Source: Balanoglossus misakiensis (Eukaryota; Animalia; Hemichordata). From it: a stretch of DNA of 64,000 nt. The position numbers and the translations under genes were made by a program. The stretch spans positions 7,889,097 to 7,953,096 of the forward strand of contig CM082598.2 in NCBI GenBank assembly GCA_040954595.2. Reading direction: 5' to 3'. Positions 12,525 through 62,284 of the stretch are shown piece after piece; position 1 is the stretch's first letter, and each line of letters opens with the position of its first letter. The notes under the pieces were generated by a model that made no database searches, was not told where the DNA came from, and worked only from the letters and a program-made list of their open reading frames with translations.

Positions 12525-12632
12525 AAATCCTCCAGACATTATTCTGAAGAGAGATCTGTATGCTTCCTGGCTGATATTCATAAACTGGAACTCCACAGTG
12601 CGTGAGTTGCGAAACATGGCACCAAGTGATTG
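12525..12632 (-). pseudogene. MED25: MED25 ACID/PTOV-domain exon (QSLGAMFRNSRTVEFQFMNISQEAYRSLFRIMSGGF)
   Basis: ccccacag|CAA...TTT|gtaagt, 108 bp; matches MED25 LGPLFRNSRMVQFHF...LYRIMGNGF. Confidence 0.9.
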
Positions 12633-21079: not shown

Positions 21080-21369
21080 CTGTATGCAAAAAGAAGGGAA
21101 AACAACATTTTATTATTGGCAGTATTGTCAGTCTGTGTTTTTTCTAACCCTTCCACCCCAATTCCCTCTTCAGAGATCTAGTCCATGGGCCAGGACCCGA
21201 TTTTTCATGAATTGGTATCAGAAAGATGGACAAAGCCTCATGTGGTTTTTTGGAAAGGCCTATATCTCTAGATTATAAATTGGGGTGATAGCCCTGCCTA
21301 TCGAGTAGCTTTCTGCATTTTTTCCCTCAAAAACTAATGTAAGAACATAAAAATTTCCGACCCAAATTT

Positions 21370-22470
21370 TGGGGGTAGGGGAACTTTAAATTGCTGTATC
21401 TCCAGCAAAACTAAAGCCAGAACAGTCATTTACCACTCAAATTGTGTGTTTAGAACTCTACCAATATAATATATTTTGGTGGTAATTCGTTTTGAATTGA
21501 GGTCAATAGAGGTCAAAAGGTCATGAAATTTGGGTCATTCTGAAAATTTGTAGTATGACTATTTCTTGAACGATTTTTTTGAACTTAAGTCTTTAAATGT
21601 CATTCAGAAGATAAAATACTCTCCCAGAATGTATTTCAAACCAATAGAAAATCTTATTATTCATTTATGACCAGAAAAACACAAATAAGGAGAAACGACA
21701 GAAAGGCATCCAATTTTCCACTCAGATTTAAGGGTAGGGGAAACTTAAGTTCTTGTAACTCCGGCAAAAATAAACCCAGAACAGTCATCTACCACTCAAA
21801 TTGTGTGTTTTTTAGAACTCTACCAATATAATATATTTTTGGTGGTAATTCGTTTTGAATTAAGGCCAATAGAGGTCAAAAGGTCATGAAATTTGGGTCA
21901 TTCTGAACATTTGTAGTATGACTATTTCTTGAACGATTTTTTTGAACTTATAAGTCTTTAAATGTCATTTAGAAGATACAATACTCTCCCAGAATCTATT
22001 TCAAACCAATAAAAAACCCTATTATTCAATTACGATCAGAAAAACACAAATACAGAGATACGGAAGAATGGCACAAGACTTCAGACCCTGATATTGGGGT
22101 AGGGGAAACTTAAGTAGTTGTAACTCCGGCAAAAATAAAGCCAGAAAAGTCATCTACCTCTCAAATTGTGTGTTTTTTAGCACTCTAGCGATTGTATATG
22201 TATTTGTTGCAATTTTGTTCTGAATTTAGGTCAAAGAGGTCAAAAGATCACAAGATTTGGGTAATTTCGAAAAATTATGGTACGAACATTTCCCGCATTA
22301 ATTTTTTAAACCCAAGTCTTCAAATGTCATTTATGAGATAAAATACTCTACACCATTTTTTTCCCGAACCAATTGAAGATCTTGTTATTCAATTACAATC
22401 AGAAAAAATTAGTAGAGAAACGGGATAATAACAAACAATTTCCCACGGATTTTGGGGTAGGTTTGGCCAT
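21370..22470. repeat. Subterminal ~365-bp tandem repeats (about 3 copies) in the foldback arm; mirrored at ~24580-25680
   Basis: Units begin ggggtaggggaa(a)ct(t)taa at ~21372, ~21731, ~22096, with a partial unit at ~22453. Confidence 0.85.
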
Positions 22471-22780
22471 CTAACAGGTAAGTATACACCCAACTGATCA
22501 TGCACATATGGTGTTTAGGAGAACGGATGTGCAGATTTGTGAACCTTTGCATGCTGCTCATGTGCACTGTACTTGTATGATGATTCCTAACAATACTACG
22601 AGAAGGGGCCATTATAGCATTGTAGCTCTGATTGTGTATTATTGTTGGATACCATTCTACAGTGTACAGGCACAGCAGATGACAAGCCAAGCAAAGGTTC
22701 AAAAATCTGCTTATTTTTTTTTCCTCAACACAATATGAGCATGATTTATTTATATTCAGGTCCAGTATAATAAATAAAAA

Positions 22781-23353
22781 ATGGCAAGCCCATCTTCTAT
22801 TCCACACAAGAGGGCTCGACGGGATTGTTTTCTCGACTGTCATGAATCCGACCATAAAGCAAGCCTCGTTACTCTACAAGATCACACCTCCTGGATAACT
22901 TTGCTGAATACAGCTAACATACAAAAATACAAACCAATTCAGGACCTCGCCATTGGTTTGGGCGAAGGTGAAATTCCTCAGGTGCAGTACCATCGGAAAT
23001 GCCGAAGTCTCTTTACGATGAAAAAGGCTCTTGAATCTATCCTTTCTAAAGAGCAGTCGTCATCAACTGAGGGAACCAATACACTGGAACGTAAAAAAGA
23101 GGTCGAGCATACAAGGGTGTCGGTGTGATCACATTTGCCTATTTTGCTCCACCACCAAGTACATGAAGGGAAGTAGGACAAGAGCTCCTTTAGTTCGTTG
23201 TCAGCAATTGCGTACGGACAACACATTTAGGGAGGCAGCACCAAGAAAAATGACAGTAAAATTCGTGCACTTCTCAGTTTTGAGTTGGTTGCTGCTGAGG
23301 GTCACTATCTTAGTAAGTGTTATATGGACTATACAAGGCCTGATATTCAAGCA
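22781..23353 (+). pseudogene. Academ-type transposase N-terminal fragment (left arm)
   Basis: ATG at 22781; frameshifted fragments MASPSS...YHRKCRSLFTMKK and CLFCSTTKY...LVAAEGHY. Confidence 0.65.
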
Positions 23354-23359
23354 GCGTAA

Positions 23360-24268
23360 GCAGGATTAGAGCAGATGTGGTGATGATACTTTCATGTGAT
23401 TGTTTTTCTGCTGCAAGAAGTTCTTTTCTTACAGCATTGTACTTCAGGTCAACAGTACCTATATCTAGTGATGACGGATATACAAGCACCCTACCATTTA
23501 CATCATTAAAAAAAATCAATGTCCCTTTGAATTCCGTATTTAGCGTATGCTGCAAGTTTTGTTGGTGGAATTGTTAACCTGTTTAACACCAAGTTGGAGC
23601 ATTTTGGTAACTAACTTGTTTGATAGATCAGTCAGGGGAACTACCTCAGGGTTTGTGAACAAATCATTTCTGATAAAAGAAAATAACTCTTCTTGAGCAA
23701 TTTGCAGGACATCCTCATAACTAGTATCTTGATCATGTTGACTTTCATCAACCTCCATATGACTTGAACCTGCTTGAATATCAGGCCTTGTATAGTCCCT
23801 ATAACACTTTCTATGATAGTGACCCTCAGCAGCAACCAACTCACGACTGAGAAGTGCACGAATTTTACTGTCGTTTTTTCTTGTTGCTGCCTCCCTTAAT
23901 GTGTTGTCCGCACGCAATTGCTGACAACGAACTAAAGGAGCTCTTGTCCTACTTCCCTTCATGTACTTGGTGGTGGAGCAAAATAGGCAAATGTGATCAC
24001 ACCGAGACCCCTGTATGCTCGACCTCTTTTTTACGTTCCAGTGTATTGGTTCCCTCAGTTGATGACGACTGCTCTTTAGAAAGGATAGATTCAAGAGCCT
24101 TTTTCATCGTAAAGAGACTTCGGCATTTCCGATGGTACTGCACCTGAGGAATTTCACCTTCGCCCAAACCAATGGCGAGGTCCTGAATTGGTTTGTATTT
24201 TTGTATGTTAGCTGTATTCAGCAAAGTTATCCAGGAGGCGTGATCTTGTAGAGTGACGAGGCCATTTT
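23360..24268 (-). pseudogene. Academ-type transposase N-terminal fragment (right arm, extends further)
   Basis: Same fragments plus ...ELFSFIRNDLF...LNTEFKGTLIFF...VLVYPSSL; frameshifted. Confidence 0.65.
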
Positions 24269-26920
24269 TTTATTTATTATACTGGACCTGAATATAAATA
24301 GATCATGCTCATATTGTGTTGAGGAAAAAAAATAAGCAGATTTTTGAACCTTTGCTTGGCTTGTCATCTGCTGTGCCTGTACACTGTAGGATGGTATCCA
24401 ACAATAATACACAATCAGAGCTACAATGCTATAATGGCCCCTTCTCGTAGTATTGTTAGGAATCATCATACAAGTACAGTGCACATGAGCAGCATGCAAA
24501 GGTTCACAAATTTGCACATCCGTTCTCCTAAATACCATATGTGCATGATCAGTTGGGTGTATACTTACCTGTTAGATGGCCAAACCTACCCCAAAATCCG
24601 TGGGAAATTGTTTGTTATTATCCCGTTTCTCTACTAATTTTTTTTCTGATTGTAATTGAATAATAAGGTCTTCAATTGGTCTGAAAAAAAATCGTGTAGA
24701 GTATTTTATCTCATAAATGACATTTGAAGACTTGGGTTTAAAAAATTAATGCGGGAAATGTTCGTACCATAATTTTTCGAAATTACCCAAATCTTGTGAT
24801 CTTTTGACCTCTTTGACCTAATTTCAAAACAAAATTGCAACAAATACATATACAATAGCTAGAGTGCTAAAAAACACACAATTTGAGAGGTAGATGACTT
24901 TTCTGGCTTTATTTTTGCCGGAGTTACAACAACTTAAGTTTCCCCTACCCCAATATCAGGGTCTGAAGTCTTGTGCCATTCTTCCGTATCTCTGTATTTG
25001 TGTTTTTCTGATCGTAATTGAATAATAGGGTTTTTTATTGGTTTGAAATAGATTCTGGGAGAGTATTGTATCTTCTAAATGACATTTAAAGACTTATAAG
25101 TTCAAAAAAATCGTTCAAGAAATAGTCATACTACAAATGTTCAGAATGACCCAAATTTCATGACCTTTTGACCTCTATTGACCTTAATTCAAAACGAATT
25201 ACCACCAAAATATATTATATTGGTAGAGTTCTAAAAAAAACACAATTTGAGTGGTAGATGACTGTTCTGGGTTTATTTTTGCCGGAGTTACAAGAACTTA
25301 AGTTTCCCCTACCCTTAAATCTGAGTGGAAAATTGGATGTCTTTCTGTCGTTTCTCTTTATTTGTGTTTTTCTGGTCATAAATGAATAATAAGGTTTTCT
25401 ATTGGTTTGAAATAGATTCTGGGAAAGTATTTTATCTTGTAAATGACATTTGAAGACTTAAGTTAAAAAAAATCGTTCAAGAAATAGTCATACTACAAAT
25501 TTTCAGAATGACCCAAATTTCATGACCTTTTGACCTCTATTGACCTCAATTCAAAACGAATTACCACCAAAATATATTATATTGGTAGAGTTCTAAAAAA
25601 CACACAATTTGAGTGGTAAATGACTGTTCTGGCTTTAGTTTTGCTGGAGTTACAGCAATTTAAAGTTCCCCTACCCCCAAAATTTGGGTCGGAAATTTTT
25701 ATGTTCTTACATTAGTTTTTGAGGGAAAAAATGCAGAAAGCTACTCGATAGGCAGGGCTATCACCGCAATTTATAATCTAGAGATATAGGCCTTTCCAAA
25801 AAACCATGTGAGGCTTTGTCCATCTTTCTGATACCAAATTCCTGTCTGGCCCATGGACTAATCCAACCTTATCATAGAAAACAATGCTGTTGGACTGAAC
25901 CATAGTGATGATCAGGGTAATGTAACCAGGGTTCCCCAGTCATTTTGTTAGCATTCCTCATGGTATCATCAATGCAGTCATATTAATGGTAAGACAGGTG
26001 TTACATGGGGTTCCAAAATCACTTATTCATGCTCCCCAACAATAGCCAAAATACTGTGTTATCCAAATTCTTATTTCCCACCTGTTACAACTTACAAAGT
26101 ATCTGTCACAGTCATTTTATGCTCTTTTAGTATTTAGGATCTATTATCGATGATATAATCACCCCTGATCATATATAGACTAGATTGCATGTATAGCTCA
26201 ACAGAATAATATTGAAGGTCAGAATGCTTTTGATGAGGAAACAACACACCAACTGCGAGATTATATCTTCTTCAGAAAATACAATCATTTTTATGTTAGT
26301 CAAGATACATTGCAACTGGTGTATTGTTCTCTCATCAAAAGCATTTTGACCTTCTATATTACTGTAAAACGGATTATTTTCGTTACAGGAAATTTTTGCG
26401 ATATTTAAAGAGGCAACTGCTATGCGAGGATTAATTTTCATGTTCTTGTATGTCACTGCATCTTTATCTCCGAAAAACATTTTACGCAACTTTTTATTTT
26501 CACATTTTGTTGGCTCTCGCGTATTTCGCAAAAATTAATTGCTTGCGAAAATAACCCGTTTTACACACAGGTGCAAGCTTTCTCTTATTGTGAGTATGGC
26601 AGAGAAAGTTTTTGGCTGCTGTAAAAATTCTCTGACAAAGACAGAAGGATTATGAAACTGAAAATGTTGATAATACAGTGAAACCTGTCAATGCAGACAT
26701 CTCTCTAATCAGGACACCTCTCTTTTAAGGAAAGATTGTTCAAGACAAGAGTAATGGTTTGAAGAGAATATTACATGTACATTTCTGTTAAAGGGACAAA
26801 GTCTCTCTCTCGCTGCCCTTTTTAGGTCCCATTGGTAAAGGCCTATATCCCATGCAGGGTTGGCGCTAGACTTTGCAGTTTTTTCGTGCAGTGCGCGCAA
26901 CGGGTATAATTTATTTACGT

Positions 26921-28363: not shown

Positions 28364-31300
28364 TCAAAAATACTGACGTTTAAACTGTTTGTACATGTTC
28401 TCTACTTCAGTTACATCTTTGACTGACCAGGCACGAAGCAAGGAGTCTTTTGGTTCTATGTCAATTTCTCTTAAGATAAATTTTGAGTCAATATTCGAAA
28501 CATCTGCTCGTGTTGGCCATTTAAATGAATTTGTACCTGTTCGAGACAGAAAGGTTGTTGTGACATTTTGACTTCCATCAGGATTTAAGTTAATATCTTT
28601 GATTTCACCTGCAAACCAACAATTTTCATAAGCTACAGCAATGTACATTCCAGCTTGTAATTGTCTCTGTACACCAAATTTCTGTACTTTCCTTTTTCTT
28701 GTTCTTTTTGATGTCTTTTTGAAGTTTTTCTTGTTAAGTGCCTGTTCAGTCTCAACTTTCTTTTTTCTTAAAGTATCATTTATCTCTTTGACGAAGTCTG
28801 GTAATTCACTGTTGTTTGCATGCATTATAGTTTTTAAGTTCTCTGTCAGTTGCTTAACAGTGAGTTTTCGTCCACTGTCTTGCCACTTAGACAGCTTTTT
28901 ATTTGGTAGACTATCTTTAAGGAGGGTTACTCTGTACATAATTTGGTCTTTAAGGGCCTTTGTTTGTTCGCTTAGTTTCATTTCTTGCAGCTTCCTATCT
29001 ACCTCAGGCTCATCTTCCCAAACCCCCCACTTATTTACAATTCTCTGCTCTAACTGGTGTCTTTTCTGCTGTTTTCTCTGTTTCTGCTTTTGTTTTTTTT
29101 CCATTCTTGATTTCTGTAATTCAAGTCTCTTCTTAATAAGATCTTTACTGTGCATGTATTCTCTTATTTTTCTTTTTGGTGCTTGCTTACGAGCTATCCG
29201 CAAATATTTCATTTTGATATGTTGTGGCAGCTTATGAAGATAAGCAGAAGTTTTATTTCTGCTGAAACAAATGACACCAGCCTTGGCTACTCTACTCTTT
29301 TGTGGTGCATGTCTAATCTGTCTGTCAAGGTCAGAGAAATCACTTTCTGATCGTATATTGGTCAGTGGTGCACTTTGAACCAGCTCGCACAGAATCTCAG
29401 ATGATTGACTCTCTAGCCCACCAGGGAGTTGGTTACCAAGCTGCCTTTCAATAACAGGTAGCATTGACTTGCAAAATGTTTGCAATGCATCCAATGTTAG
29501 CAAATCAAAATGCGTGTCTCGTTCTGTTGGAAACAGATTGGAATACAATTCATCTTTAGTGATGGTTGTGTCTGACAAGTAGAAGGTTTCATTCAGTAGG
29601 GGTGTTGCATCTGATGAATTATCAGCTAGGCAAGTTTTCAATTCTAACCAATGAACATTCATGTCATAATAATGTATATCCTTTCTTTCTAACAGTCGCA
29701 TTAGAGGACCAGTGATTAGTTTAGATATTATTCCAAGAGCTCTACATTCGGCCATCACAATGGATTCATCCAAAATTGCTTGAACATGACATATCAACTT
29801 ATTTGTTGACCCACAACGCCCAGACTTCAAGAAGTCAGAAATATGGTGTCTGTGATGATACACAGCAGCACCTTGATGAAAAGCAACATTGAATCTATTA
29901 TGTTCAAATGCTATTAAATACTGATTTTCTTTCACTTCATTCATATATGGGGCAAAATCAGTGTAAACACCTGATTTTTGACAACCAGAGTCAGTGAAGC
30001 CTTTGCTGGTTTGATATAACAGCGCAAAACAGTGTGACTGATTACCAAATGTTGACTTTTCTGTTTTCATCTGACTCCTGTGTTCATTTTCAAAGATTCC
30101 ACATGCTGTGCTCACTGCTGTAGCCATGTTACTTAAAACATGCATACCACATAGAAGATGGTTTACTTTTGTCATTTCCGATTTCTCATCATCACTTAAT
30201 TTATCCCAGTTTTCCTCAATGACTGGTAATAAAGTTTCTCTCAGTTCTTCCAATTTGCTCTTGTATTTTCTATTTACAACATGACGATCACTCATAATGT
30301 TTTTACTACGAAGGAGGAGTTGTGCATATATAGAAAATTTATCATTATCATCCTCAGCAATGGCTTCACTGAGCTCCTGAAATGTTAGTATTGTAGCATT
30401 CATGTAGTCATCGGCACTGCCACGCAAAAGTTCTTGAAATCCAAGAGATAGCGAGGATTTGTTTGGAAGTGTCACTTGCAGACCAGCATAGTCAATGAAT
30501 TTCTTTCTTGTGCCATCACTATGGAGGGTATTGTATTTTTCCTGTTCTAATATTTCTGTAGCAGCTTGGGCCTGTGCAACAACCAGTGCTTCTACCTGCA
30601 ACATTGATGTCAGTGATTTGCTTGGCAATCGTCCAACATCAATGTTCAGGAGATTTTTGATTACAGATTTCACAACTGATGTGCAGTTATCCACTGAAAC
30701 ATTATGTGATAGCAGATCATAATAGATCTGGCTTAATGTATCTGTGTATTTTCCATTTTCAAATGTTTTTATCTGATTGTCACTCATCATCTCTGTTACT
30801 CTTTCATGCAGTTCCTGGTTTTCATTTTCCAACTGCCTAACTTGATCCCTGGCTTCTCTTAATTCTATGGACTCTTGTTTATCTGCAGACTGGGCTTTCC
30901 TTTTCCAGTAACTTTTATTCTTTTGCAGATTAGTCTTTTCTTTTACTATTTGATGCAACTTTACTTTCAATTTCTCTGCTTCCTTTGTCATTAAATTCAT
31001 ATAACGTACTTGATCATCAATCACTTTCTTGTGTACTTGAATTTGGTGTTCCATCTTTGATATTTTCTCATCTCTTCTTTTTAGTTTCTTTGTTACATTT
31101 CTTGGTGCTAATGATGCCAGTTTTTCTTTGAGTTGTCTGATATCAATGATCTTCTTATTATACTTCAACTTCAGCTTATCTAGTTCTTTCATCTTCTCTA
31201 ACACTTCCAGCTTCTCTGAGCTAATTCTTCCATAGCTTCACCCAACATACTTATTTCTTGGTAACTGTCTATCAGACTGTTTGTCAAATTTCCCATCATC

Positions 31301-32028
31301 TTGTTTATATCTATGTTATCAGTGTCATGTTCACTTTCATGTTCAGTATTGTTACTGGTGTGTGATACACTGGCAGACACCTGATGCTGTGGCAGTTTGT
31401 ATAGTTGGTTCACAAAACTCTCAAGTTCACTTTGATGATTATTCATTTTCAGTTTCAAGTATTTATCGTGGAATCTTGTCCACTGTCGAGTAATTGCAGC
31501 TGGACTAAGTGCTGTTTCTACTTTCAATGACATAAACTGTCTCAGCCATTTCAAGGCATGATCCCAAGGAAGGTGGTGTGTGACAAGAACATTTCTCAAT
31601 TCCAGTATATGCTTGATTTGAAGGTTAATAGTGTTGTCCTGGCTATCTGAGAAACTGCAAGTGAGCAAAACCTGCTTGGTGATATTATTCTCACTGAAAA
31701 AATCTGACAACTTCCTCTCTGCCTGGCCTGAAATAATGGTGCTGAGTATTCCGTCTTCATTTCCTTCTCTTTCACCTTTCTCTACTCTCTTCCTAACTTG
31801 CCTTGTTAAATTACTTATTTTTGCTGGCAAAATGATGTCAGGATCAAACAGTTTAATGATGTGAGGTAAAGCCTGTTGAATATTAATTCAGGTTGCCTGC
31901 AGCCCATCGTGTAAACTTAGATACAGGTTGTAGGTCAGTGGAACCTCACAATTAATATCAGCTAAAGTCTTCTGTCCTGTCACTAAGCTGTCGAGATTGT
32001 CCCTTATCTTAAGTAGTACTGTTTCCAT
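28364..32028 (-). pseudogene. Large (~1,220-codon) DDE transposase, hAT-like with CxxH insertion domain; one nonsense codon and one frameshift
   Basis: ATG 32028 (METVLLK), in-frame TGA at 31888-90, 1-nt frameshift near 31217 joins the 946-aa ORF. Coiled coil, then TLHSDGTRK (D), NIMSDRH (D), CGMH (CxxH), TNIRSESDFSDLD (E), and a C-terminal Tudor/SH3-like GMYIAVAY...WF.G...FKWP segment. TIRs not resolved. Confidence 0.75.
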
Positions 32029-34763: not shown

Positions 34764-35137
34764 AGTGTTTTTTTATCACTCTGGTGGCTACAAGCAGGGT
34801 TGAAGTTGTGTGTGGTGAAACATTGATTCACTATATATCCACATGTAGAATAACAGAAATGGTGCCCTGTAACAAACCTAATTCATGGAAAAGGGGCAGC
34901 GAAAGAGACAAATTTTCCCCGTAAGGACACCTCTCTATTAAGGACACATTTTGTGGTCCCAGAGGTGTCCTTCCTAGGCAGGTTTCAATGTACTTCACAC
35001 GTTAGTTGTACTCAACTGTCTGTATGGAATCATTCCCTGATTGACATGGTGAGCTTTACAAAAACAGATAAACTACCAAAAAAGTCAGGGCCATATGTAG
35101 AGAATGATCTTGAAACTCAGAATATTACCATAATTAC

Positions 35138-46792: not shown

Positions 46793-47829
46793 ACTGTCTG
46801 AGGCATTGTCAGACTGGTTAGGGAGTCGTCATGATTTATGGCCTTCATCACGGATACCACAACAGCCTTCCATTTCGTGACTCGCCAAGAAGAAATCAAA
46901 GACCGTTGATAACACATCAAAATGCGTTGCCCTACTCTCCTTCATTAGAAATTGCAACTTTGAAATTTCACATTGGATCCATGTCTTCTCTTAAGTAGTT
47001 GGGGCAATAAAATCAAAATTTCCGCAAACAGTGTTATCCCCCCCCCCCCTCTGCGGACAGTGTTATCCTCCCCTCTCCCTGGGGCATATTACAACCCCTG
47101 ATGCTTAAAGGAATTTAAAATAAATACATAAAGAGTTGGCTCGATGAACTGTACTGCGATATTGTCTGTACATTTCTTCTTTTTCATTTTAAATACAAAT
47201 AAGGTGACCATCAATACAAGGTGGAAATTTGAGTTTGCAATGATGGAAGTGGTTGTGAAGATGTGTCATCAAGTGTGTCGCAGTCAGCCCGAACGCAGGT
47301 CAGCAATTTCACTGTAATTGCCAAGGTTTCTAGTTCTGGTGACGCCCTCAACGTTCTGTCATACACGCAACTGAAAGTGGCATGCGAAAGTCCCGCGCTT
47401 GTTTAATGCCAAGTTAACAAGCAAGGACGGCAGTTGAATGACTCAAATTGATAAAATGGCCAAAATCACATCTGAACTACACATCTGTGTGGTTTTTTGT
47501 TGGAAAAACATGTTTTCTTTGCAGAAAATAGCGACTTACAGAATGACCCCAGAACAACTAAAATCAAAACATGCCGTACTTCAGGGTTTTTACGGACTGC
47601 CGCACTTTTATTTAAAAAGAATTTTTAAGTTTAGATATAATTTTCACTAAAATCGATATATTGTGTAACAAAATTAAAACAAATCACGATGCAACCCCCA
47701 GAGGTCTTCGCTCAAGCGCTCGATCCTTTTAAATTCAGCCCGGATGGTGACGCAACAGCCTCAGTGTAGCTCATAGCTGTGCACGTAATTGTATGGAAAG
47801 CCATAACTGCCTTAAGTGAACTGAACTCA

Positions 47830-49072
47830 TGTTCTCTTGTGTATTTAACATGTTGTCTTGTACATTTAATATGTTGTCTTGTGCATTTCATATATGGTCC
47901 TGTGCATTTAACATGTTGTCTTGTGCATTTCATATATGGTCCTGCGCATTTAACATATTGTCTTGTGCATTTTATATTGTCTTGTGCATTTAACATGTTT
48001 TCTTGTGCATTTATGTATGCTGTCTTGTACATTTAACATGTTGTCCTGTGCATTTCTATATGTTGTCTTGTCCATTCATATACGTTGTCTTGTGCATTTC
48101 TATATGTTGTTGTGTGACTTTAATATGTTGTCCTGTTCATTTCTATATGTTGTCTTATTTATATACGTTGTCTTGTGCATTTCTATATGTTGTTGTGTGA
48201 CTTTAATATGTTGTCCTGTTCATTTCTATATGTTGTCTTGTTTATTTATATACGTTGTCTTGTGCATTTCTATATGTTGTCTTGTCCATTCATATATGTT
48301 GTGGTGTGCCTTTAACATGTTGTCCTGTTCATTTTTATATGTTGTCTTGTCCATTCATATACGTTGTCTTGTCCATTCATATATGTTGTGGTGTGCCTTT
48401 AACATGTTGTCCTGTTTATTTCTATATGTTGTCTTGTCCATTCATATATGTTGTGGTGTGCCTTTAACATGTTTTCCTGTGCATTTCTATATGTTGTCTT
48501 GTCCATTCATATACGTTGTCTTGTCCATTCATATTGGTTGTCTTGTCCATTCCTAGACATTGTCTTGTGCATTTCTATATGTTGGTGTGCCTTTAACATG
48601 TTTTCCTGTTCATTTCTATATGTTGTCGTGTGCCTTTAACATGTTGTCCTGTTCGTTTCTATATGTTGTCTTGTCCATTCATATACATTGTCTTGTGCAT
48701 TTCTATATGTTGTCTTGTCCATTCATATACGTTGTCTTGTCCATTCATATACATTGTCTTGTACATTTCTATATGTTTTCGTGTGCCTTTTACATGTTGT
48801 CCTGTTCATTTCTATATGTTGTCTTGTTTATTTATATACGTTGTCTTGTGCATTTCTATATGTTGTCTTGTCCATTTATATATGTTGTCCTGTTCATTTC
48901 TATATGTTGTCTTGTTTATTTATATACGTTGTCCTGTTCATTTCTATATGTTGTCTTGTCCATTTATATATGTTGTCTTGTGCATTTCTATATGTTGTCT
49001 TGTCCATTTATATACGTTGTCTTGTCCATTCATATTGGTTGTCTTGTCCATTCATATACGTTGTCTTGTGCT
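47830..49072 (+). repeat. Left subterminal array of ~21-bp units (~59 units)
   Basis: Variants of tgtgcatttaacatgttgtct / tgtgcatttctatatgttgtct / tgtccattcatatacgttgtct. Confidence 0.95.
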
Positions 49073-49183
49073 TGTGGTGTTTTATAATGATTATCAAAGT
49101 ATATACCATAATGCAACAGTATGAGCATGCTCAGTAGATTTTTACATAATAACACGCAAGAAAGATAGCGTTGAAGAGGTATC

Positions 49184-50542
49184 ATGGCATCTATGAGAGA
49201 CATTCTAGAAAGTCTACAAATGGGGAATCTCAGTGACAACTTTGAGAGTGAAAAGGTAACACCAGAATTAGTGTGTAAACTTTCTGTGCCAGAACTGGAG
49301 GAGCTTGGTCTTCAAAACAGGGCAGACATGATGGCATTACGTATTGCGTGCACCACAAGTGGAGGGGAAACTCCAACAAAAGCCCATGGATTATATGGTG
49401 GTGCTCCAGAATTTGTCATTCCCAAATGCATCTTAGAACATTTTTTTGATGAAGGATTCACAGTTACTGAAGTGGCATCTATGTTATCTGTTTCGGAGCG
49501 TACTATTTACCGCAGAATGATGCATTATGGGCTGAGTAAGATGAATTTCTCTGATATCTCTGATGGTGACCTGGATGATAATGTACAGCAACTGACAGTG
49601 GAATTCCCTTATTGTGGTGAAAATATGATCAAGTATATGTTGCAAGAAAAGGGAATTAAAGTCCAACGGATGAGGCTCCGTGATAGTATCCACAGGGTAG
49701 ATGCTGAGGGTGTTAATTCCAGAAGAAAAGGTCGTTTACAAAGACGTGTCTACAATGTGAAGGGACCAAATCACTTATGGCATATTGATACCAACCATAA
49801 GTTAATTAGATGGCATTTTGTGATATTTGGGGGCATTGATGGCTTCAGTAGACTACCTGTCATCCTATCCTGCAGCAACAACAATAAGGCACCCACATTG
49901 CTGGAATACTTCAAGTCCGGTGTTGAGAATTTTGGTCTTCCCAGTCGTGTAAGGTCTGACATGGGTCGTGAAAATATACTGATAGCTGAGTATATGATTG
50001 AGAGACGGGGACCCAACAGGGGAAGCATGATTACAGGCAAAAGTGTGCATAATCAGAGGATTGAACGATTATGGAAAGATGTGTATGAAGGTGTTCTGAG
50101 CCTTTACTACCAACTATTTTACTTCATGGAAGAAAGAGGTGTACTTGACCCACTGAATGTACTGCACATTGCAGCTCTTCACTATGTGTTCATGCCTAAA
50201 ATAAATGAAAAGTTAGAAATCTGGAGGAAAGCTTGGGCTCGACATCGTATGCGTACAACAAAGACATCACCTCTGCGTTTGTGGATATCTGGACAGATGA
50301 ATGATCCAGTTGGTATTGATGACTCTGACATTGGTTTGTATGGAGTAGAGGGTGTCATCAATGATGATTCAGAGGAGACAGACTCGCGACCAATCATCGA
50401 GCCACCATCATTTCAAATGGGTCAACAGTGTATGGATGCACTATCTCAGCACATATTACCAAACTGGACATCAGACAACTATGGCATTGACATTTATAAT
50501 ATAGCAGTTCAAATCATACAGGACAATGCTGATCAAAATTAG
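49184..50542 (+). CDS. IS3EU DDE transposase (452 aa): N-terminal SAM-like domain, HTH, integrase core
   Basis: Intact single ORF. SAM-like [38 protein letters not shown]; [22 protein letters not shown]; catalytic [20 protein letters not shown]. Confidence 0.93.
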
Positions 50543-51337
50543 TCAATAATTTTCAAAGTGCTTAAGTCGCACATATTTGACGGATTAAAAGAAATGACAA
50601 TACTTTCAATTTTACTGATCATGTGGATTTTTGGTTTCTCATTTGTATGTACATGTATAATGACAATCTGTAAAAAATATAGGGGTCACCACGCTTGTTA
50701 TCGAAATACAAGGCCGCGAATTTAGTCCCTAATGCTACGGAAAAAGATGAATACATGCAGTTTTTCAGTTTGTTCTGTGCATACATCATTAAGAGCATTT
50801 GTACACAGAGCAGTAAAAGTTTTAAATAATATACCTTCACAGGCGAAACTGTCCCAAATACTTTTGTTTCACTCATTTCACTCTTTCCGATACTATTGTT
50901 TTTTCTTATTACAGTCTCTAATGAATATGCTATCATTTCTTCACATTTGGGAATAAAACAGCTTTAAGTACACATTTTTAATAGAGAACAATGACAACTT
51001 TATTGACCATTAAATCATGACCGATAAAAGAAACTGAACATCTCAGACAGTAAACATTTACCAACAGCTAACAGCTACTTCTAGAAGCTCTACAGATTCT
51101 ACTATATTGTATTATATTCTTTCTACTTTAGACTGATATTGATTTTCATCTGTCAGCCAAATCAGTATTACCGGTAAGATGTATGTTTAATAGATTAAAA
51201 TGAAATAACATGATACATACCATGGTCACACTGGTAAAAATGTGAAACGTTTCATATGGGGTCACACATACACCATTAAGACGTTTCAGAAACATCTCAG
51301 ATCAAATACTGGCGTAAATTATGCGTAAACGGTTTAA

Positions 51338-51683
51338 AGGGACAAAGTCTCTCTCTCGCTGCCCTATTCCCATTTAATTATGTTTAATACAAGACACTGT
51401 TTATGTTAATGTAGTAAATGTGGATATATAATCAACGTTCAACCACACACACCTTCCATCTCACTTGTAGACACGAGAGTGAAAAAAACTCGCCAAATGA
51501 ATAATTGTTCTCAACCATTTTTTTCATTTTGAGCGAGTTTTTACTCTCATATCATACAAGCAGAATGGAAGGTGTGTGTGGTTGAACAGTCATTCACTAC
51601 ATATACACATGTATATTAACATAAACAGTGTCTTGTATCAAACATAATGCAAACAGGGCAGTGAGAGAGATAGGCCGTGCACA
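51338..51683. mobile_element. Kolobok-type palindromic MITE in the intergenic region of the IS3EU element
   Basis: TTAA|AGGGACAAAGTC..., internally palindromic, ends ...gcaca|TTAA. Confidence 0.7.
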
Positions 51684-52001
51684 TTAATAAAAAAATGGTG
51701 TCAAGGACACTGTGGTCCCATTTGAGGATTACGCAGAAATAGGTAAGTATACACCAGATGATCAAAAGGTGTAACCTCACACATGGTAAAATTTGAGACA
51801 CTATTTGTGAACACAGGGTAAAATTTGCCTATGGTAAACAGAGAACATTAATCCTTACAGTTTCCTTGTGTCCACATAAGCAAAGTTTATGTATAGGCGC
51901 TGAGCCTCGGGGGGGGGGGGGGGGGGGGGGGGGGCATAGACAATGGGTTGAGGAGAGGTGTTAATCCTTACACTGGCTCAGGTCTGAGAAATGAGTGCAT
52001 A

Positions 52002-55000
52002 TCAAACATTACCAAAAAACCTATTGGAAAAAGCTAAATCATACAATGCAAACAATTGTGCTGCCGATGGTAATGGATGTGCAGCTGTTGGTCTCGGCAA
52101 TGATAATAAATTTATACATGTGTTTGCAGTCGGCAAAAACGACTGCTGCACGGGAACAAATGTTATTGCCGGACTTATGCAGAAACCGAGCACTGGCTCT
52201 TCTTCAGCCCCTGTCACAAACTGGAGGATATCAGTAAGAGTGACAGATCCTCTTCTCCCACCTGAAACAGATTAAAGACAAGAGTATAAAAACTCACCAA
52301 AATAAATAATCGGTCTCTACCATTTATTCATTTTGGGCAAATTTTTACTCTCATATCATACAAGCGGAATGGAAGGTGTGGTTAAGGTTGAACGTTGATT
52401 CACTATATATCCACATGTACATTAACATAAACGGTATCTTGTATCAAACATAATAAATAGGAAAAGGACCGGGAGAGAGACTATTGTCCCTTTAATGATT
52501 ATGATTGGGGATAGGATACATATGATACACAGCTAAAGATTGACAGACCTGCACCAGGTCTGTCACATGCATACCTGACAGGACAGGTCTGCTGCAGGTC
52601 TGAGAGGACATAATACATGGTGCAGGTCTAACAGGTCTGACCCGCACCAGGTCTGATCCAGCAGACTGCTGCAGGTTTGCGTCCATATCGCTGCACATGA
52701 CCTGTTGGTCAGACATGCACCAGACCTGGTAAAATTTAGTTGTGTTGTACCCATGGAATGTTAATTTTCAAAAGCAGTTTCTGTATACATATAATTCAAA
52801 CTGTCACTAAAGTGCAAAAGACAGGTGGCAATGAATTGATTAGGGTGCAGTACAAGTAATTGAGATATCTGGCTCAAATTTGTCACAATGCAAGCTGTCG
52901 TATTGCTCTTTTAAATTAAGTGTGTCTCTGAATTTCTTGGAAGATTTTGTCATAAAAATAATTTTAGAAGGTTTAAATATCCAAGACAACCTTTGGAAAA
53001 TCATGACTAAAGCTTGTACTCACACAAATTTGTGGCATTGCAACACAACATAGGCAAAAACTTACTTTTGAAGCATTATGCAAATTACCTTTCATGTGAT
53101 AGTCATGTAAACAATGGTGACAGTCTGGTAACCACAATTTCCCCTATATATAGTTTTTTTTAGCAAATATATAATTTATGGGGGTTCTGAGCTCATTAAC
53201 CATTAAGGAATTGTTAGATTAAAAATGTCAATACATGTACTTGAGTTTTGAGATTCTAGCAAGACATACGAAAACGAGTCTGAGGGTGAGCATGTACTGT
53301 GCACACAGACCGAGATTACACGTTCGGTGACTGATAAGTTTATTAATATCCATACACTTTCTCGTTCCATGACGCGAACAACCTGCCATGCGTTGTTGAC
53401 CCTCCGCCTTGTTTTGAACTATTCTCACGCCTTGTTCGAGAATCTCGTTCCGGATCTCAAAAACAGAGTATTCCTTGTACTGCACCCAATCCTAACGATG
53501 CCAAGTCAGTTGAAAGGGGTTTGATTTCCAGTGTGCGTAGAATTCTGGCACCCAGGCCTGTTAGGCTGCCAAATTTGCAAAATTTAATCTTGGATATGCA
53601 GGAAACACAACACAACACATCCATATACAATCAAAATGTTCAACTTACTTGCGACTTCACGTAGGTATTTGATAAATACTGCATACACTTCACCCTCAAA
53701 GCGTCTGTTATTAGAACCTGCATCTGCGAACTCCGGTACCAGTAGGGATTTGATTTTATTCATCGTCAATGTACTGGCTGTATTTTGTTGGAATAGGTAT
53801 TGAAACACAGGTAGGTCCAAACATAACTGGTAATGCAAAGAAAACCAATGATGACATAGTCCTTGCTGCTTCAATGTTGTTAAAATCTATGGTACTCCAT
53901 TATTATTATTATTGAAAAATAATGATGACTTTGTACATAACAATTGTACACAGATCATCACAGATCAAATGCCATTATTAACAAATAATTTCATACCAAG
54001 TTTAGATGACAATAATCTAAGAATTGGCATTCCAGTACAACTGAATTGTGACACATTTAGTCATTTGTTTTCTGAAGTAACATTTGGAAATATTGCAATG
54101 TGCATCAGAGCAAATTACTAGGGTATTACTGATAGATATGGCAGAGGAAATCTTCCTGTTTCAGTGGACCTACCTGATATATCCCTAAAGTGCTCAATCC
54201 ATCCTTCAGCTTCATGATACATAATGGTATCTCTTCACCTTCAGAACCTTTAAACAACCATCGTAGTACATCTTCACTCAAAAACTGAGCTAGCTTTCCG
54301 TTCTGTATCATACTTAGAGCTGTAAGAAAAACTTATTATCATTACTCGTTTTATCTTTAAAGAAAGAATTACAGGAGTTTTACCATACCATCCTAACCCT
54401 AATCTGCTCCTTGCAGTCATATATTTCTGTGAATATGGAAAGGCTTTTATTTTTAGACTTGAGGTGTTCGGCACCCCGAAATCGCTGACTTCTGAACATT
54501 TAATCTTGGGAATAAAAATTGGAGGTCAACCTGCTAGATTTTTGGAAAAAGCACCCTCTATCTAGCACCTCTTTAAAGGGACAAAGTCTCTCTCTCGCTG
54601 CCCTTTTTCCATTACCTTTTTTGCTAGTCTTTGTAGATCTTTGTGAAACGGCTTCACAAAGAAGTTTTTTTGGAAGGTCATCATATTTTTTACCATTATA
54701 GAATCTTGTTCAGTATGATAATCACATATCAATACAACTATGGTATTAAATTAAACACAGATTTGCCTAAAAATCTACTTTTATGTAATTTTTTACCATT
54801 TCTAGATAAACTTTTTTAAACCTGGTAGATCCTTGTTTGAAATATATGAAATCAATTTAAGGGGGGAAAATGGTGGGTCACCGCGCAAATTGTTGAGACA
54901 CAGGAAGTACGTAAAACATGGCTTTCAGGCTGTAATCTGATTGGCCTGACCACAACATGAGGTTCAATGGGGAGCTTCTATGGGAGTTGGTCAGATGTAG

Positions 55001-58000
55001 TGTGAGGCAACAGCATAAGAATACTGTACTGCAAAGCAAAAGATGTTGCCTTACCCTACATCTGATTTGAATCAGATTGGGTGATCACATGACCGAGGTA
55101 ACAAGGTCATGTGCCAAATCAATCCCCATATTCGGTCTATATCTTTATTACATGCCTTGCCGACAATATATATTCATGATAACTTGTATTTACAAGTAAA
55201 AAAATAAATTATAAATGTCATTTTCGTGATATCAAGAGGGAAAACAACAATTTTATCAAAACACTAAGCTTTAAAGTGTATGAATTATTATTTAATTGAA
55301 AGTGAAGTGGATCCCTGGGTGTTTCAGTTTCTGTACCGATCAACCATCATACATGAATAATCTGGTGCAGTTTTTGGAAAATATTGCTATTTCATCATTT
55401 GCAACGTACGATGTTGTATGGATTGAATTTTAATGTGTTCAGAAATAAATTATTGTAAAAGCAAAAGTGAATCACTTTTTTTCGTTTGGTTTCATGTCGA
55501 AAACAGTTCCAGGTCATCTTGCCGGCCAGTGATGATTTTGCAGCCCGCTACGTCATGAAACGTTTGATATACGAGGCATTGTAATAAAGTTAGCATTTGA
55601 CATGTACTTGTCAGGAACTGATTCTCTACCGTTGAAAACACACTTGGCCATGATGAGGCTATAAAATCTTACCTATAATTATTCCTACTGTGGTGTAGTC
55701 CTCATGAAGGTGCTCTTTTAAGGTGTCGAAATATTTTTCTTTCATTTCTCTCATAATCAATGCGAAGAATTCTTTTCTTGGTCCTCCATAATCCTTTGCT
55801 TGCTAATGAACACAGAGAAAAATAGTGTGAAATTGTTATATAAAGACATGAAGCATATGCTCAAAACATGACAAAGTTACTCATCCTGTGACCAGTTTGA
55901 GTTTTCTGCAAATATAGAGATAGTTTGGAGCACTGCACATGCACCATCCAAGCGAACAGGAAGTAGCATTTTTCTCAGGTTACACATCCAATATAGGGTA
56001 TTTTCAGCTCTCGTACATGGCTAAATAGAGTGTCATTTTTGGTCAAGTTCATAACCAAATGCAGCCAAGATGTTCAGTCAATGTCATGGCTGCCGGCGAG
56101 CATGAAAAGTTCAGAATCCCCGAAAATTTGGGCCTAACCATTCTGCAGTCATCTCTGGTTTCTGCAATGTTACTCCAGAATATTTATGATTTCAGTTGGC
56201 TGTATTCAAATCTATTGTACAGTGTCTTTTAGAGGATCCATTTTTCCTTCATATAAATATTAAATATTCTCATTGAACAATTAGTTGACAAAATGCCAGC
56301 ATTGTATATAATGCACAATGGGGGACAATGTGGACGCTCGTTCTATGCATCACACATGGTGCTAGTAGGTGGGTAGCAGGTAGGAGGAAGTTTCGTTAGA
56401 AGAGATTAATCACATCACTTCTGGGGTCAATTTAAAATAGGTAAAATAGTTAAGGTTCAAAGACAAGTAATTGATCCTCTTAATCTAAAAATTATGTTGC
56501 TTAATAAGCTCAGAAGTCAGAACCCCATCAAAAGCCTACCACAGACATGCAATTTGCATAACCTTTAATAAATCAATTTGCCCAATGGTTTGTTTTAATG
56601 CTTTGAGGTATCACGCTCAAATTTGCGGGAAAGCAAGCTGTCACAATGCTTTTTCCAAAGTGTGTCTCATATTTTTTATATCTTGGTTATTTTAGTGTTA
56701 AATGATCTTAAAGTTTGTTAATCATAACATTTGTTTTAGAAGATTAAAAAAAATCTGAGACACACTTCAGTCAAGCATTATGACAACTTGTTACCACAAC
56801 AATTTCAGGCACATTTAGTTGTTGTTGCAATAATATGCAAATTACTTGTCATGTGACAGCTATGTAAACAATGGTGATTCAGTGGAATCAAAGATAAGCC
56901 CAAAGCTAGTTTTCTCCACTTCTATCCCTGATAAATTGATACATATATGTTGCTAAATTTCATAAATACAAGAAATCCTACATTGTACTTTCATTGAACA
57001 CATCACTCTGAAATATCCAACAAAGTTAGACTTACCTCTCCATAAAAATCAACTTCCAAAGTTGTACACAGCTCCTTCACAGATAATGTTGTTATCTCAT
57101 CAAATCCAGTTTGGAGAACTAACAACCTGTCAACAGTTATGGAAGTGGTTCTACCCTCAACATGCTGACTTGTGGACTTCAACTCTAATGGTCTGCCTGT
57201 CATTACTACTGACTGGTAAAATCGCAGAATTTCAACTGGATTTGTGACTGCATTCTCCTTGCAATATTTCACGGTTCTCTGTACAGCATCATTTACCCAT
57301 AACATGCCATCTTCAATCTCTGGTTCACTATCAATACCATCTCCAATTCCAAATATACTGCCTGAATTATCTTCATTATTCCTGGTCTGAAAGTAAACAA
57401 ATCATTGTAATGAGTTTAATGACACATGACAAATACAAAGTATTTAAACGTTCCCCTTTTCAGGTAGGCCTAAATCCTGTCATGTTCTGATTACAGTATC
57501 ATAGGTGTTAAAGCAAATACTAGTACATGAATAAATTATCCAAATATAAGGTTCAACCATATACAAGTTCTCTTGTTGGTGGGACCATAGCAGACTTATG
57601 TCACAATTACGAACACAATTGAGCATATTAATTTAAATAATAACACATGTTATAATATACACCATGCTAATACTGTGTCGTGATTTGCCAGAATCCGTCA
57701 CGTGATAGGAAAAGAGTATCAACTATGAATCCCTAGGTAAATAGCAGAAAAAATATAAACCGGTCACGTGACCAACGTGAGTGAGGTTTATTATAAAACA
57801 CCTATGGCCTGACGTCCGTGAAGTTGGCCTCATCCTCAGCTTGAAAGGTCACGCGAATATGAGGATGAGGATGAGGCCAACTTCACGAATGCTGGGCCTG
57901 GGCTATATTCGGGCCATTGCAGCCGTTTTTACCCCCTAGTGACTGTGAGTTACCATTTTTTTAAAATTATTATTATTATCATTATTTAAACGGTGTTTTC

Positions 58001-60174
58001 TCCAGGATGTTGAGAGAAGGGGGGAATGTCCCCTCTTAGTCCAAAATTATTGGGGGATTTGGTCAAAGTAGGGGGGAATCATGATTTGCATAATTTATGT
58101 TAATTAGGTAAATTTCAAGGAATAACAATTTTGAACGTTATCTTACTAACTGCCTTCATTCCAGCAACTTATGAAGTGCTGGGCTTGCCAGCGTAGGTAG
58201 TAGGTACTGTGCAATCTCGTGTGACCTGAGCTACGTAGTGATAGCGAGACAGAATTACAACATTTTACATGTTAACATGTGACATCTAAACAGTTACAGA
58301 TTTTTACTACTTTAAATTAGTAGATTTTGCAGAGGAAGACACCAGCTTGCATGACTTTCAGGGCATGTAATTTAAAAAAGGCCGGAGAGCAGAAAATAAC
58401 TCCTGAAATTAATTACACAAGTGGTAGGAGAGTGACTAACTGCTCCCCTGGCAAGGAGAGTGAAATGAATAAAATAAATGCAACTGGAAAAACAAGTGTC
58501 TTTCTTTAAAACTATACCTGGGAAAAATTTTCTTGTTTGATTTTAAAAGTTTCAGTTTTTTTAGCTGTCAAAATATTATATTGTGAAACTATTAATAGTG
58601 AAATAAATTGAAGTGGTATATTCCTTCAGATTTCTGCCTACACTTCCCCATCTGTGGCTAGGCACACTACTCAAATAAATAGTCACTGTACATATTGAAT
58701 GACTTTCCTTCCAAAGTAAGAAAACAGGTCTTGGAAAACTGATACATTCTTGATAATCGCCATGGCATGAATGCAGTTCTTTTAATTTGCATAAAATTGT
58801 TACATTCTGCCAACCCAATTTCAAATGTCTCCATAACAACAAGATCACTTGAGTGTGTGCTCTAAACTTAGACAGTGTCCAGACAGAGCTCTTTGGCTGT
58901 TCCAACAATTGCACACTATAGCCCTTGGAGCTAAATTACACGTAATTGAATGTGAAAGTCAAGACATTTACAACATAGTATTTGGGGGTGGGAAGTTAAA
59001 ATGTATAGGCCAGCACGCAGTGTTATCGGCCGTTTTCCCAGTGTTTAGACTGACAGTGCATGCTATGGAGGCATGGACGCGCATGTACTGGCCGTCTGGG
59101 CTGCTCACGAAGGGGCGATTGTCGCCCCCTGAACTTGTTACAAGGGGCGCTTCAAGTGGGGGGAATCGCGCAATCGCGCGTCCCGGAGAAAACACCAGAA
59201 TCATACCCCTCAGCAATTTCGATCCCCGTTAGAAACAGAACAAGATGATTAAAACTTACATGATCCTGTTCAGCATTTTCAGTCAGATCAACAACCATAT
59301 TGTTCGGAATTTCTTGCGGTGTATCTCGATGTTCAATAGGTCCGAGAGGAAGCTCTGGGTCTTCATCCGACTCCGATTGAAGAACTGGCAAACACCAGTC
59401 GATATGACTGCGTAATTTGTCAATCGTGAACTCTGTGTTGCAACCTCGGCACTTTTCTTTCAGACTCGTCCCATGGCTGGTTTGTTCTGTTTCTGTGACG
59501 TTCAGATTTTTTTTAATAGGGCGCAAGTATAATTTGGCTTGAGAGCCGACATGGCGCTTTAGCTCCTCGACGCTCCAAGAACATGTTACCGTTTGCAAAT
59601 TTCGGCAGTTGCCAGTGCAATGCATGATTTCGAAACCTCCGCATTCACTTAATTGTGGATATTCCGCCTTGATTTTGTTGGCAACATCTTCCTCATCATC
59701 GTGGCAGAAAAAAATCATCTTACGTTCCCCAAGTCCCGCCTTGTTAAGAACTAGCTTTTCAGCAACTGTTGGAATTCTCTGTTGAAGGCGATCAGCCACA
59801 CACAAGACACGGACTGTCCATGTCCGGGCCTTTTTGGCGGTTTTCTTACCTCGACCAACAGTACCAGACGGGGCACCAGCCCGCCCACGCCCACCATTGC
59901 CTCTGGCGGGGATAAATAACATGTCTCTTTCAGAGCGTACGGTCTCAGAGAGTCTTCCATAGTTGCTAGAAGATGCAGATGCTTGATCCATGTCTTCACG
60001 GGCGACAGCACGTGAACACTTCTTTCGCAGATCATGCCGGTGTCCCATGGTCTCTACCCCCAATCTTATGAGTTCACGATCAGTGAGCGATTCTACAGTT
60101 TCCGGGGAAATGCGTTCTTGCAAAAAATTTGGTATCAGAGTTGACAATGACATAGAACGCAAAATTTCCTCCAT
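52002..60174 (-). CDS. Transposon-encoded HECT E3 ubiquitin ligase-like protein, 659 aa, 6 exons (SAM, ubiquitin-like, UBZ finger, SIM, HECT)
   Basis: Exons 60174-59260, 57386-57036, 55802-55673, 54319-54174, 53826-53649, 52261-52002; all GT-AG with consistent phases, total 1980 nt, no internal stop. HECT motifs VDFYGEQAKDYGGPRKEFF, GIIIALSM, LKDGLSTLG, ILQFVTG, FLPTANTCINLLSLP (catalytic Cys), and C-terminal FFGNV* with the -4 Phe. Confidence 0.9.
52280..52491. mobile_element. Truncated Kolobok-type MITE (right half) in the last intron of the HECT gene
   Basis: Ends gagagagactattgtccct|TTAA; homologous to 51338-51683. Confidence 0.65.
52528..52744. mobile_element. Small palindromic MITE (CAC termini, EnSpm/CACTA-like) in a HECT intron
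   Basis: CACAGCTAAA...TTTAGTTGTG with many cagacctg/caggtctg subrepeats. Confidence 0.5.
52860..56880. repeat. Two diverged copies of a ~270-bp repeat in HECT introns (52860-53130, 56610-56880)
   Basis: Shared gctcaaatttg...gcaagctgtc...atgcaaattac...catgtga...atgtaaacaatggtga. Confidence 0.6.
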
Positions 60175-60414
60175 GATGATGATGACAGGATACAATGTCC
60201 CTGTGCGAACACGCGTGCTTGTCTTAGTGCTACAGATTTTCCCTCTCTTTTTCACCGGATGTACATTGTAAATGTATCAAATATTTTGGGAGACTGCAGG
60301 CCACAGTCTATTTATAGCTGTGAAAACAAAACTGTTCCGCCAGGGGGAGGATACCGCCCTCCCGGAACAGCTTGATCTTCTTCTAATGAAGTTAATCTTC
60401 TTCTAATGAAGTTA

Positions 60415-61520
60415 AATGCACCACACAACATGTACAAAACCACAGGACAACATATAGAAATGCACAAGACAACGTATATGAATGGACAAGACAACATATA
60501 GAAATGCACAAGACAATGTATATGAATGGACAAGACAACATATAGAAACGAACAGGACAACATGTTAAAGGCACACGACAACATATAGAAATGAACAGGA
60601 AAACATGTTAAAGGCACACCAACATATAGAAATGCACAATGTCTAGGAATGGACAAGACAACCAATATGAATGGACAAGACAACATATATGAATGGACAA
60701 GACAACATATAGAAATGAACAGGACAACATGTTAAAGGCACACGAAAACATATAGAAATGTACAAGACAATGTATATGAATGGACAAGACAACGTATATG
60801 AATGGACAAGACAACATATAGAAATGAACAGGACAACATATTAAAGTCACACGACAACATATAGAAATGCGCAAGACAGCATATAGAAATGCACAGGAAA
60901 ACATATTAAAGGCACACCACAACATATATGAATGGACAAGATAACATATAGAAATGAACAGGACAACATGTTAAAGGCACACGAAAACATATAGAAATGT
61001 ACAAGACAGTGTATATGAATGGACAAGACAACATATAGAAATGAACAGGACAACATATTAAAGGCACACCACAACATATATGAATGGACAAGACAACATA
61101 TAGAAATGCACAAGACAACGTATATGAATGGACAAGACAACATATAGAAATGCACAGGACAACATGTTAAATGTACAAGACAGCGTGTATGAATGCACAA
61201 GACAACATGTTAAATGGACAGGACAGCATACATAAATGCACAAGAAAACATGTTAAATGCACAAGACAATATGAAATGCACAAGACAACATGTTAAATGC
61301 GCAGGACCATATATGAAATGCACAAGACAACATGTTAAATGCACAGGACCATATATGAAATGCACAAGACAACATGTTAAATGCACAGGACCATATATGA
61401 AATGCACAAGAAAACATGTTAAATGCACAGGACCATATATGAAATGCACGAGAAAACATGTTAAATGCACAAGAAAACATGTTAAATGTACAAGACAACA
61501 TGTTAAATGCACAAGAGAAC
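60415..61520 (-). repeat. Right subterminal array of ~21-bp units (~52 units), inverted relative to the left array
   Basis: Reverse-complement variants: agacaacatgttaaatgcaca, agacaacatatagaaatgcaca, agacaacgtatatgaatggaca. Confidence 0.95.
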
Positions 61521-62284
61521 ATGAGTTCAGTTCACTTAAGGCAGTTATGGCTTTCCATATAATTGGCCGGGTTGTATCGTCGACGTCGAACTGTTGCTCT
61601 ACAGAATCTGCAATAATCAAATTTGCATTGTGTCGAAATTGGCTAGCACTTTCGCTGTGTTTTAGCGTATAAATCTTGTACTGCCCCTATCCCCCCGTAT
61701 TGATCAGTTTGTGGAGAGTGAAAGGCTAAGTCACAGGGGGGCCTAGTTGAGGATTTCCCTCGTACCACCATAGACGGTCAGTCTGTGTTATGTGTAACAG
61801 AATCCTGATCAGAAATTGCAAAAGCTTGTTATCAATAAACACAACTTCAATCATTTCTGTACGTTTGACACTATTCTCAAGTCTTCAAAATATGAATCAC
61901 TGTGGCAATCAAGATGTGCCGCGGACATACCTGCATGTACACAGTGTCCGTAGCTCTGCATGGCAGCTGGGGCTTTGTGTGTACGTCTGCGGTAATAAGA
62001 CACGCAGCCCCGCCAAGCAGAGCTAACAGTGCCCGTAGCACTCGACCGTAGCATCGGCAATAATGCACTGAAAATTGACATTGCAAATCGTAGAAATATA
62101 TGTGTAGGAGCAGAGTCATGCACAGTTTTACAGTCAGATACGCTAATTTATTTATTTTATTATAAAAAAAAACTTCTAAAATATCCAAGAAAGTATAGCT
62201 AAGTTTCATGATCACTGGACAAAACAAATCGCGCAGTCTACATTGTGTACACTGGGTGCCCCTGCACGATTCGTGGAAGTCGAG

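Follow-up and report, generated by a model that had tools for sequence, protein, structure and literature searches.

A HECT-type ubiquitin ligase without the canonical E2-binding small N-lobe subdomain is encoded by a gene of the hemichordate Balanoglossus misakiensis, as profile alignment and a structural model of a relative confirm for the exon 4 junction at which this subdomain would be expected. The gene was found in a 64,000-nucleotide stretch of contig CM082598.2 (assembly GCA_040954595.2), the whole of which is referred to here as the window, and it is carried by a complete DNA transposon. The small N-lobe subdomain of HECT ligases is, in the passages of the source drawn upon, the site at which E2 is bound (PMC3077247).

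The ligase gene comprises six exons (60174-52002, minus strand), all introns are of the GT-AG type, and the spliced frame is open over 659 amino acids:

59260 to 60174, minus strand: exon 1, amino acids 1-305, with a SAM domain, a ubiquitin-fold domain (about 115-225) and a C2HC zinc finger (237-261)
57036 to 57386, minus strand: exon 2, amino acids 306-422, linker and beginning of the HECT N-lobe
55673 to 55802, minus strand: exon 3, amino acids 423-466, GGPRKEFF helix and a beta-hairpin 13-17 amino acids shorter
54174 to 54319, minus strand: exon 4 (146 nt), amino acids 466-514, directly joined N-lobe helices with Cys499 at the junction
53649 to 53826, minus strand: exon 5, amino acids 515-574, hinge and beginning of the C-lobe
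52002 to 52261, minus strand: exon 6, amino acids 574-659, C-lobe with the catalytic Cys622 (52118-52116) and a Phe at position -4 (Phe656)

In exon 1, the Pfam profiles SAM_1 and SAM_2 score above their cut-offs, and zf_C2HC_14 scores just below its own (23.8 bits, cut-off 25). The HECT profile PF00632 matches at 34.9 bits against a cut-off of 23.9 (E 1.7e-8), which, together with the presence of Cys622, upholds the intact C-lobe described by a previous, sequence-only reading. Two RefSeq models from the hemichordate Ptychodera flava match the ligase, one (P0003) aligning over residues 1-659 at 45.7% identity and a second, shorter one showing 69% over the HECT core; the gene model is therefore sound.

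The two N-lobe helices in question lie within one exon (54319-54174, minus strand, between an AG acceptor and a GT donor) with no intron between them, just as had been read from the sequence, and nine residues (K489-P497) part them, close to the ten or so that had been estimated. The profile of the 116-member family aligns to E6AP (1C4Z) at chain positions 10-126, where the chain number plus 494 gives the residue number (fixed by the catalytic C326 = C820), and places the first helix at chain 114-126, immediately before the small subdomain. The second helix corresponds to the E6AP helix after chain ~208, by way of residue 503 of the relative P0008, which matches position 157 of the Pfam HECT profile, and of the AREL1 237-248 segment, the exact register being read by hand; a profile of C-terminal fragments gave a PDB alignment that still fell short of this helix. 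From Gly473 of the QNG motif to Gly506 there are 33 residues in the window protein versus about 110 in E6AP, and the stretch lost by alignment, some 75-80 residues, equates to approximately E6AP 621-700, including T656 and F690. According to the relevant passages of PMC8635412, T656 and F690 (E2 interface) and F665 (ubiquitin exosite) all fall within this stretch. The GG motif and the catalytic Cys are correspondingly 195 residues apart, compared with 276 in E6AP, 281 in Pub2 and 287 in AREL1 (the latter three hand-counted from alignments). Profile alignment to E6AP also shows the hairpin that follows the GGPRKEFF helix to be shortened, through a further and lesser loss of 13-17 residues. At the junction left by the E2 subdomain stands Cys499 (54221-54219, minus strand); a Cys occupies this position in 82 of 116 family rows and is absent from the other 34.

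Structural prediction was carried out on two relatives standing in for the window protein, P0020 (50% identical over the HECT domain) and P0003. In the P0020 model (pLDDT 89, pTM 0.83), seven residues link helix 198-204 to helix 212-222, the whole block having a pLDDT of 93-98, so that the absence of the small subdomain first proposed from sequence is reproduced by a predicted HECT fold in which both helices are joined. When this model was compared with 48,161 chains, the matches at Z >= 8 consisted solely of 19 HECT entries, with HECT structures at Z 15-21; UBR5 ranked first (Z 21.3, rmsd 3.3, 273 aligned), and for the ligation complex Rsp5-Ub-Sna3 the value was Z 19.5 (rmsd 3.4, 263 aligned, model 68-371 against chain 433-806). 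The bilobed HECT fold with its large N-lobe subdomain is present in the P0020 model and agrees with the alignment of the family profile to E6AP chain 10-126. In the model of full-length P0003 (pLDDT 81, pTM 0.54), disordered linkers connect the SAM, ubiquitin-fold, zinc-finger and HECT domains, which together with the low pTM suggests that the ubiquitin-like domain has no fixed place on the HECT. Its middle domain has a ubiquitin fold, at Z 7.2-7.6 to the TBK1 ULD and UFM1 (UFM1 Z 7.4). Relocation of the small subdomain was considered and rejected.

The sequence-only reading had treated the trait as belonging to one gene and had missed the element around it; the trait is instead family-wide and the gene transposon-borne. 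A search for a full E2-binding subdomain, by alignment and in the P0020 model, found none: in 111 of 116 aligned relatives the junction measures 20-36 residues, and the remaining five are gapped at an anchor, in a set that was collected by similarity to a short-form query and so shows the size of the family, not the absence of long forms. Among 53 relatives in which both motifs were found, 49 have a GG-to-Cys distance of 188-217 residues, and the other four are shorter still (139-156). The family forms 126 clusters at 50% identity (E <= 1e-30), and its named members come from corals, bivalve molluscs, a crinoid and a hemichordate. Across 42 long relatives, the ubiquitin-like domain is present in 40 (by a profile built from the same proteins), SAM in 32 (missing from 10) and the zinc finger in 19. 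Word-based homologue searches, which are weak, gave no match for exon 2 or for the ubiquitin-like region, an Atlas search with the latter returned only unnamed clusters with scores under 0.9, and viral contigs yielded no relatives of the ligase or of the transposase. A more divergent lineage (L022:1-885 and L032:2-697) also lacks the first junction helix and keeps the catalytic Cys; L022 has a convergent transposase. Elsewhere among the loci, an ORF at L001:5953-6474 (minus strand) resembles a DIRS-type tyrosine recombinase by eye.

Metagenome and transcript-like sequences bear on the reality of the junction. In five of 67 metagenome loci the GG-to-Cys region runs in one stop-free frame of 192-203 residues, and two of these five adjoin a transposase gene; the exon borders are identical in 10 of 11 intron-bearing loci examined; and a 2,580-nt Logan contig encodes a complete relative of 664 aa (75-93% identity to loci with introns) and is most simply a spliced transcript, the alternative being an intronless copy. 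No HECT match was found in 21 ORFs from introns and exon flanks. Because the junction lies within one exon, these ORFs lack a HECT match and the five loci are single-frame, no hidden exon is to be expected; a missed exon was ruled out by the in-exon junction, the recurrent exon borders and the intronless genomic copies.

Conservation of the active site points to function. Among the 82 rows that reach across it, 70 retain the catalytic Cys, nine are gapped and three have changed, and a Phe or Tyr occupies position -4 in 62 of 69. Residues equivalent to E6AP R506, E539 and E550, which presumably have a catalytic role, are kept in 91 of 104, 101 of 109 and 103 of 111 rows, respectively. The donor-ubiquitin face beside the Cys is likewise retained, Ile623, Asn624 and Leu626 standing for E6AP F821, N822 and L824. 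For dN/dS, 1,230 locus pairs sharing 60 or more codons were examined; synonymous sites were unsaturated in 29 of them, and these usable pairs, which are not independent of one another, all gave values below 1 (0.07-0.79). This purifying selection, with the conserved Cys, -4 aromatic and N-lobe residues, argues against decay and for function, and the joint conservation of active-site residues from the N-lobe, C-lobe and tail argues for catalysis. Judged from these sequence patterns, the ligase is probably catalytically active.

The gene resides in an element whose parts are as follows:

47786 to 47791, plus strand: left copy of the target-site duplication (TSD), TAATTG, 6 bp
47792 to 61559, no strand assigned: complete IS3EU/GingerRoot-type DNA transposon of 13,768 bp (~13.8 kb), with ends TATGG..CCATA
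47792 to 49071, plus strand: left terminal inverted repeat (TIR), mostly a 22-bp minisatellite (57.6 copies)
49184 to 50542, plus strand: intact transposase of 452 aa, with a SAM-like N-terminal domain, an HTH and an rva_4 integrase core
60414 to 61559, minus strand: right TIR, with a 22-bp minisatellite (51.8 copies)
61560 to 61565, plus strand: right copy of the TSD, TAATTG, 6 bp

The two TIRs, each ~1.2 kb, are identical over their outermost 50 nt and 90% identical over 1,112 aligned columns. The transposase (PF24764, E 4.8e-77) carries the catalytic triad D202-D259-E294, that is, DD34E. In the parts of three papers drawn upon, IS3EU/GingerRoot elements are marked by TAYGG..CCRTA ends, long TIRs, a 6-bp TSD and an integrase-type transposase, and in fungal members the second gene, facing the transposase, is an alpha-kinase (PMC10045372, PMC12730594, PMC6839031). 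The element in the window has TAYGG..CCRTA termini, TIRs of more than 30 bp, a 6-bp TSD and an integrase-type DDE transposase, and by its ends, TIRs, TSD and transposase type it is classed as IS3EU/GingerRoot. Unlike the fungal elements with alpha-kinase, its second gene, convergent with the transposase, is the HECT ligase; a survey of the ORFs of the element found no third gene. The arrangement recurs: of 16 loci, several of them close relatives, in which the sequence continues for 1.5 kb or more past the end of the ligase, 13 have a convergent transposase there.

The SAM domains of the transposase (49184-49360, plus strand) and of the ligase (60174-60010, minus strand) are homologous (35% over 54 aa, E 3e-9). 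The homologous SAM start of the transposase is also found in L021, L027 and L047, and the transposases of L001, L011 and L012 have a different N-terminus; because of these three and of the SAM domain missing from 10 of the 42 long relatives, SAM pairing is not universal.

Other features were noted in the window. A short dispersed repeat occurs at 34814-34918 outside the element, at 51580-51684 between the two genes and at 52386-52490 in intron 5, and is probably a small non-autonomous element. A hairpin-like element of ~4.6 kb (21212-25837) has arms that are 97-99% complementary, with reading frames broken in both. At 28364-31887 (minus strand), an ORF of 229 aa abuts one of 957 aa in another frame; neither has a Pfam match, and by eye the two may represent a DDE-transposase-like gene. 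Harbinger-type transposase fragments lie at 7844-9049 (minus strand; DDE_Tnp_4, E 2.4e-25), and a tandem array with a 122-bp unit and ~14-15 copies, many of them 97-99% alike, at 12481-14405.

Single changes on the lost surface of E6AP, T656I and F690C, are described as causing loss of function in the part of PMC8635412 consulted, and loss of the whole subdomain is for this reason expected to cripple ordinary loading. Our favoured reading, with about even odds, is an active ligase that bypasses the canonical dock when it is loaded in cis from a host E2~ubiquitin. On this proposal, the host E2~ubiquitin would be held mainly through its ubiquitin and through the ligase's own ubiquitin-like domain, and ubiquitin would pass to Cys622; the ubiquitin-like domain, the most constant companion of the HECT (40 of 42 long relatives), would be the best candidate for a loading helper. 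Sections of earlier work describe weak binding of ubiquitin in trans by the E6AP C-lobe (KD 400 uM; PMC6463701) and describe Parkin as taking most of its E2~Ub binding energy from ubiquitin (PMC5264512). The likeness to Parkin and other RBR ligases is one of working, a catalytic-cysteine module fed by an E2~Ub held largely through ubiquitin, as far as the same portion of that source goes (PMC5264512); the folds are unrelated, and in RBR ligases RING1 binds the E2. Charging through the zinc finger (UBZ), one of the routes offered by the sequence-only reading, was excluded as a general route, the finger being present in just 19 of 42 long relatives. Full-length G2E3-like HECTs carry a similar ubiquitin-like domain; on that footing, the domain would not have arisen as a replacement for the dock. 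As the exosite Phe (NEDD4 F707 = E6AP F665) falls in the lost stretch, we infer that the products would be few-ubiquitin modifications rather than processive chains. The ligase might reach the element's own transposase through the matching SAM domains and modify it, a target that we regard as possible, though with somewhat less than even confidence.

Loading in trans, in which E2~ubiquitin would be delivered to the Cys of an active enzyme by an adaptor, by the transposase complex or by a RING or HECT ligase of the host, is unlikely. It would suit a HECT left without an E2 surface and with its catalytic residues conserved, and non-RING E2-binding elements are known, according to the passages used of PMC5264512 and PMC5095918; however, the element lacks a third gene, and one host partner would have to suit corals, molluscs, echinoderms and hemichordates alike. 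It is improbable that the Cys is loaded with another modifier (SUMO, NEDD8 or UFM1), directly from E1, or by relay via Cys499. The junction Cys shared by 82 rows and a middle domain as near to UFM1 as to any ubiquitin fold speak for such schemes, but Cys499 is missing in 34 rows and starts an amphipathic helix, so that it may be structural, a Z of 7 indicates only a beta-grasp fold, and the donor surface of the C-lobe looks ubiquitin-like.

The decoy or dead enzyme that had also been suggested from sequence is disfavoured by the retention of the catalytic Cys in 70 of 82 rows and by purifying selection. Such a protein would be a non-catalytic binder or scaffold of the ubiquitin or proteasome pathway with a structural Cys, consistent with the loss of both E2 dock and exosite and with the loss of function of E6AP E2-interface mutants; yet just three of the 73 rows without a gap show a changed Cys, residues of the N-lobe and of the tail that lie far apart and come together only in the active site are jointly conserved, and an E2 decoy would be expected to retain its E2 site, not to lose it, making this reading quite improbable. 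The reading as an error of annotation that overlooked an exon, or as a dead, decaying passenger copy with a deletion of its own, could appeal to a gene model drawn from genomic sequence, but is barely credible against the in-exon junction, the shared borders in 10 of 11 loci, the intronless copies, the 126 clusters and purifying selection; the last two also ruled out single-copy decay.

Returning to the active ligase loaded in cis, its relation to described enzymes can be set out. With canonical HECT E3s (E6AP/UBE3A, the NEDD4 family, AREL1, UBR5 and TRIP12) it shares the bilobed fold, the GG..EFF motif, the catalytic TC motif and the -4 aromatic; unlike them, it is 80-90 residues shorter from GG to Cys, has a shortened beta-hairpin and is without the small N-lobe subdomain, which provides their E2 site and part of their ubiquitin exosite. 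Among Atlas models of other families, those of chordate G2E3 and Neuralized-HECT proteins come nearest (TM by query 0.68 and 0.79); the ligase differs from these proteins in having SAM, ubiquitin-like and zinc-finger domains in place of the PHD/RING or Neuralized domain and in being transposon-borne. The HECT of G2E3 is of near full length. Some family members are named "G2/M phase-specific E3-like" in databases. The PHD/RING profiles PHD_G2E3 and zf-HC5HC2H had no match in exon 1 of the window or in 60 relatives, and G2E3 orthology was ruled out by this lack of PHD/RING zinc fingers.

A literature search, with Repbase entries, subscription papers and supplements outside its scope, turned up no publication that describes a HECT carried by IS3EU elements, and one with subscription papers and supplements outside its scope found none on a Cys-intact HECT without the small N-lobe subdomain. 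A term search of the main text of the GingerRoot paper returned neither "HECT" nor "ubiquitin", and the portions of two HECT family surveys covered by term search mention neither transposons nor truncated HECTs (PMC11353290; PMC2837046).

Taken as a whole, the broadest form of the proposal is rather doubtful and is put forward tentatively: a widespread class of active, transposon-borne HECTs that dispense with the dock, that would be charged by a route new to HECTs (a ubiquitin-fold domain that presents the E2 in the manner of an E1, or a relay between two cysteines) and that would modify their own transposase via SAM-SAM pairing, controlling transposition. Accounts of HECT catalysis treat E2 docking at the small N-lobe subdomain as an invariable step, and a large natural family in which this subdomain is lost and the active site conserved offers a ready test of whether E2 docking can be bypassed; the minimal HECT of ~325 residues may also serve as a tool. 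Many invertebrate genes labelled "G2E3-like" prove to be transposon genes, and the finding suggests that a DNA transposon can have a ubiquitin enzyme among its working parts.
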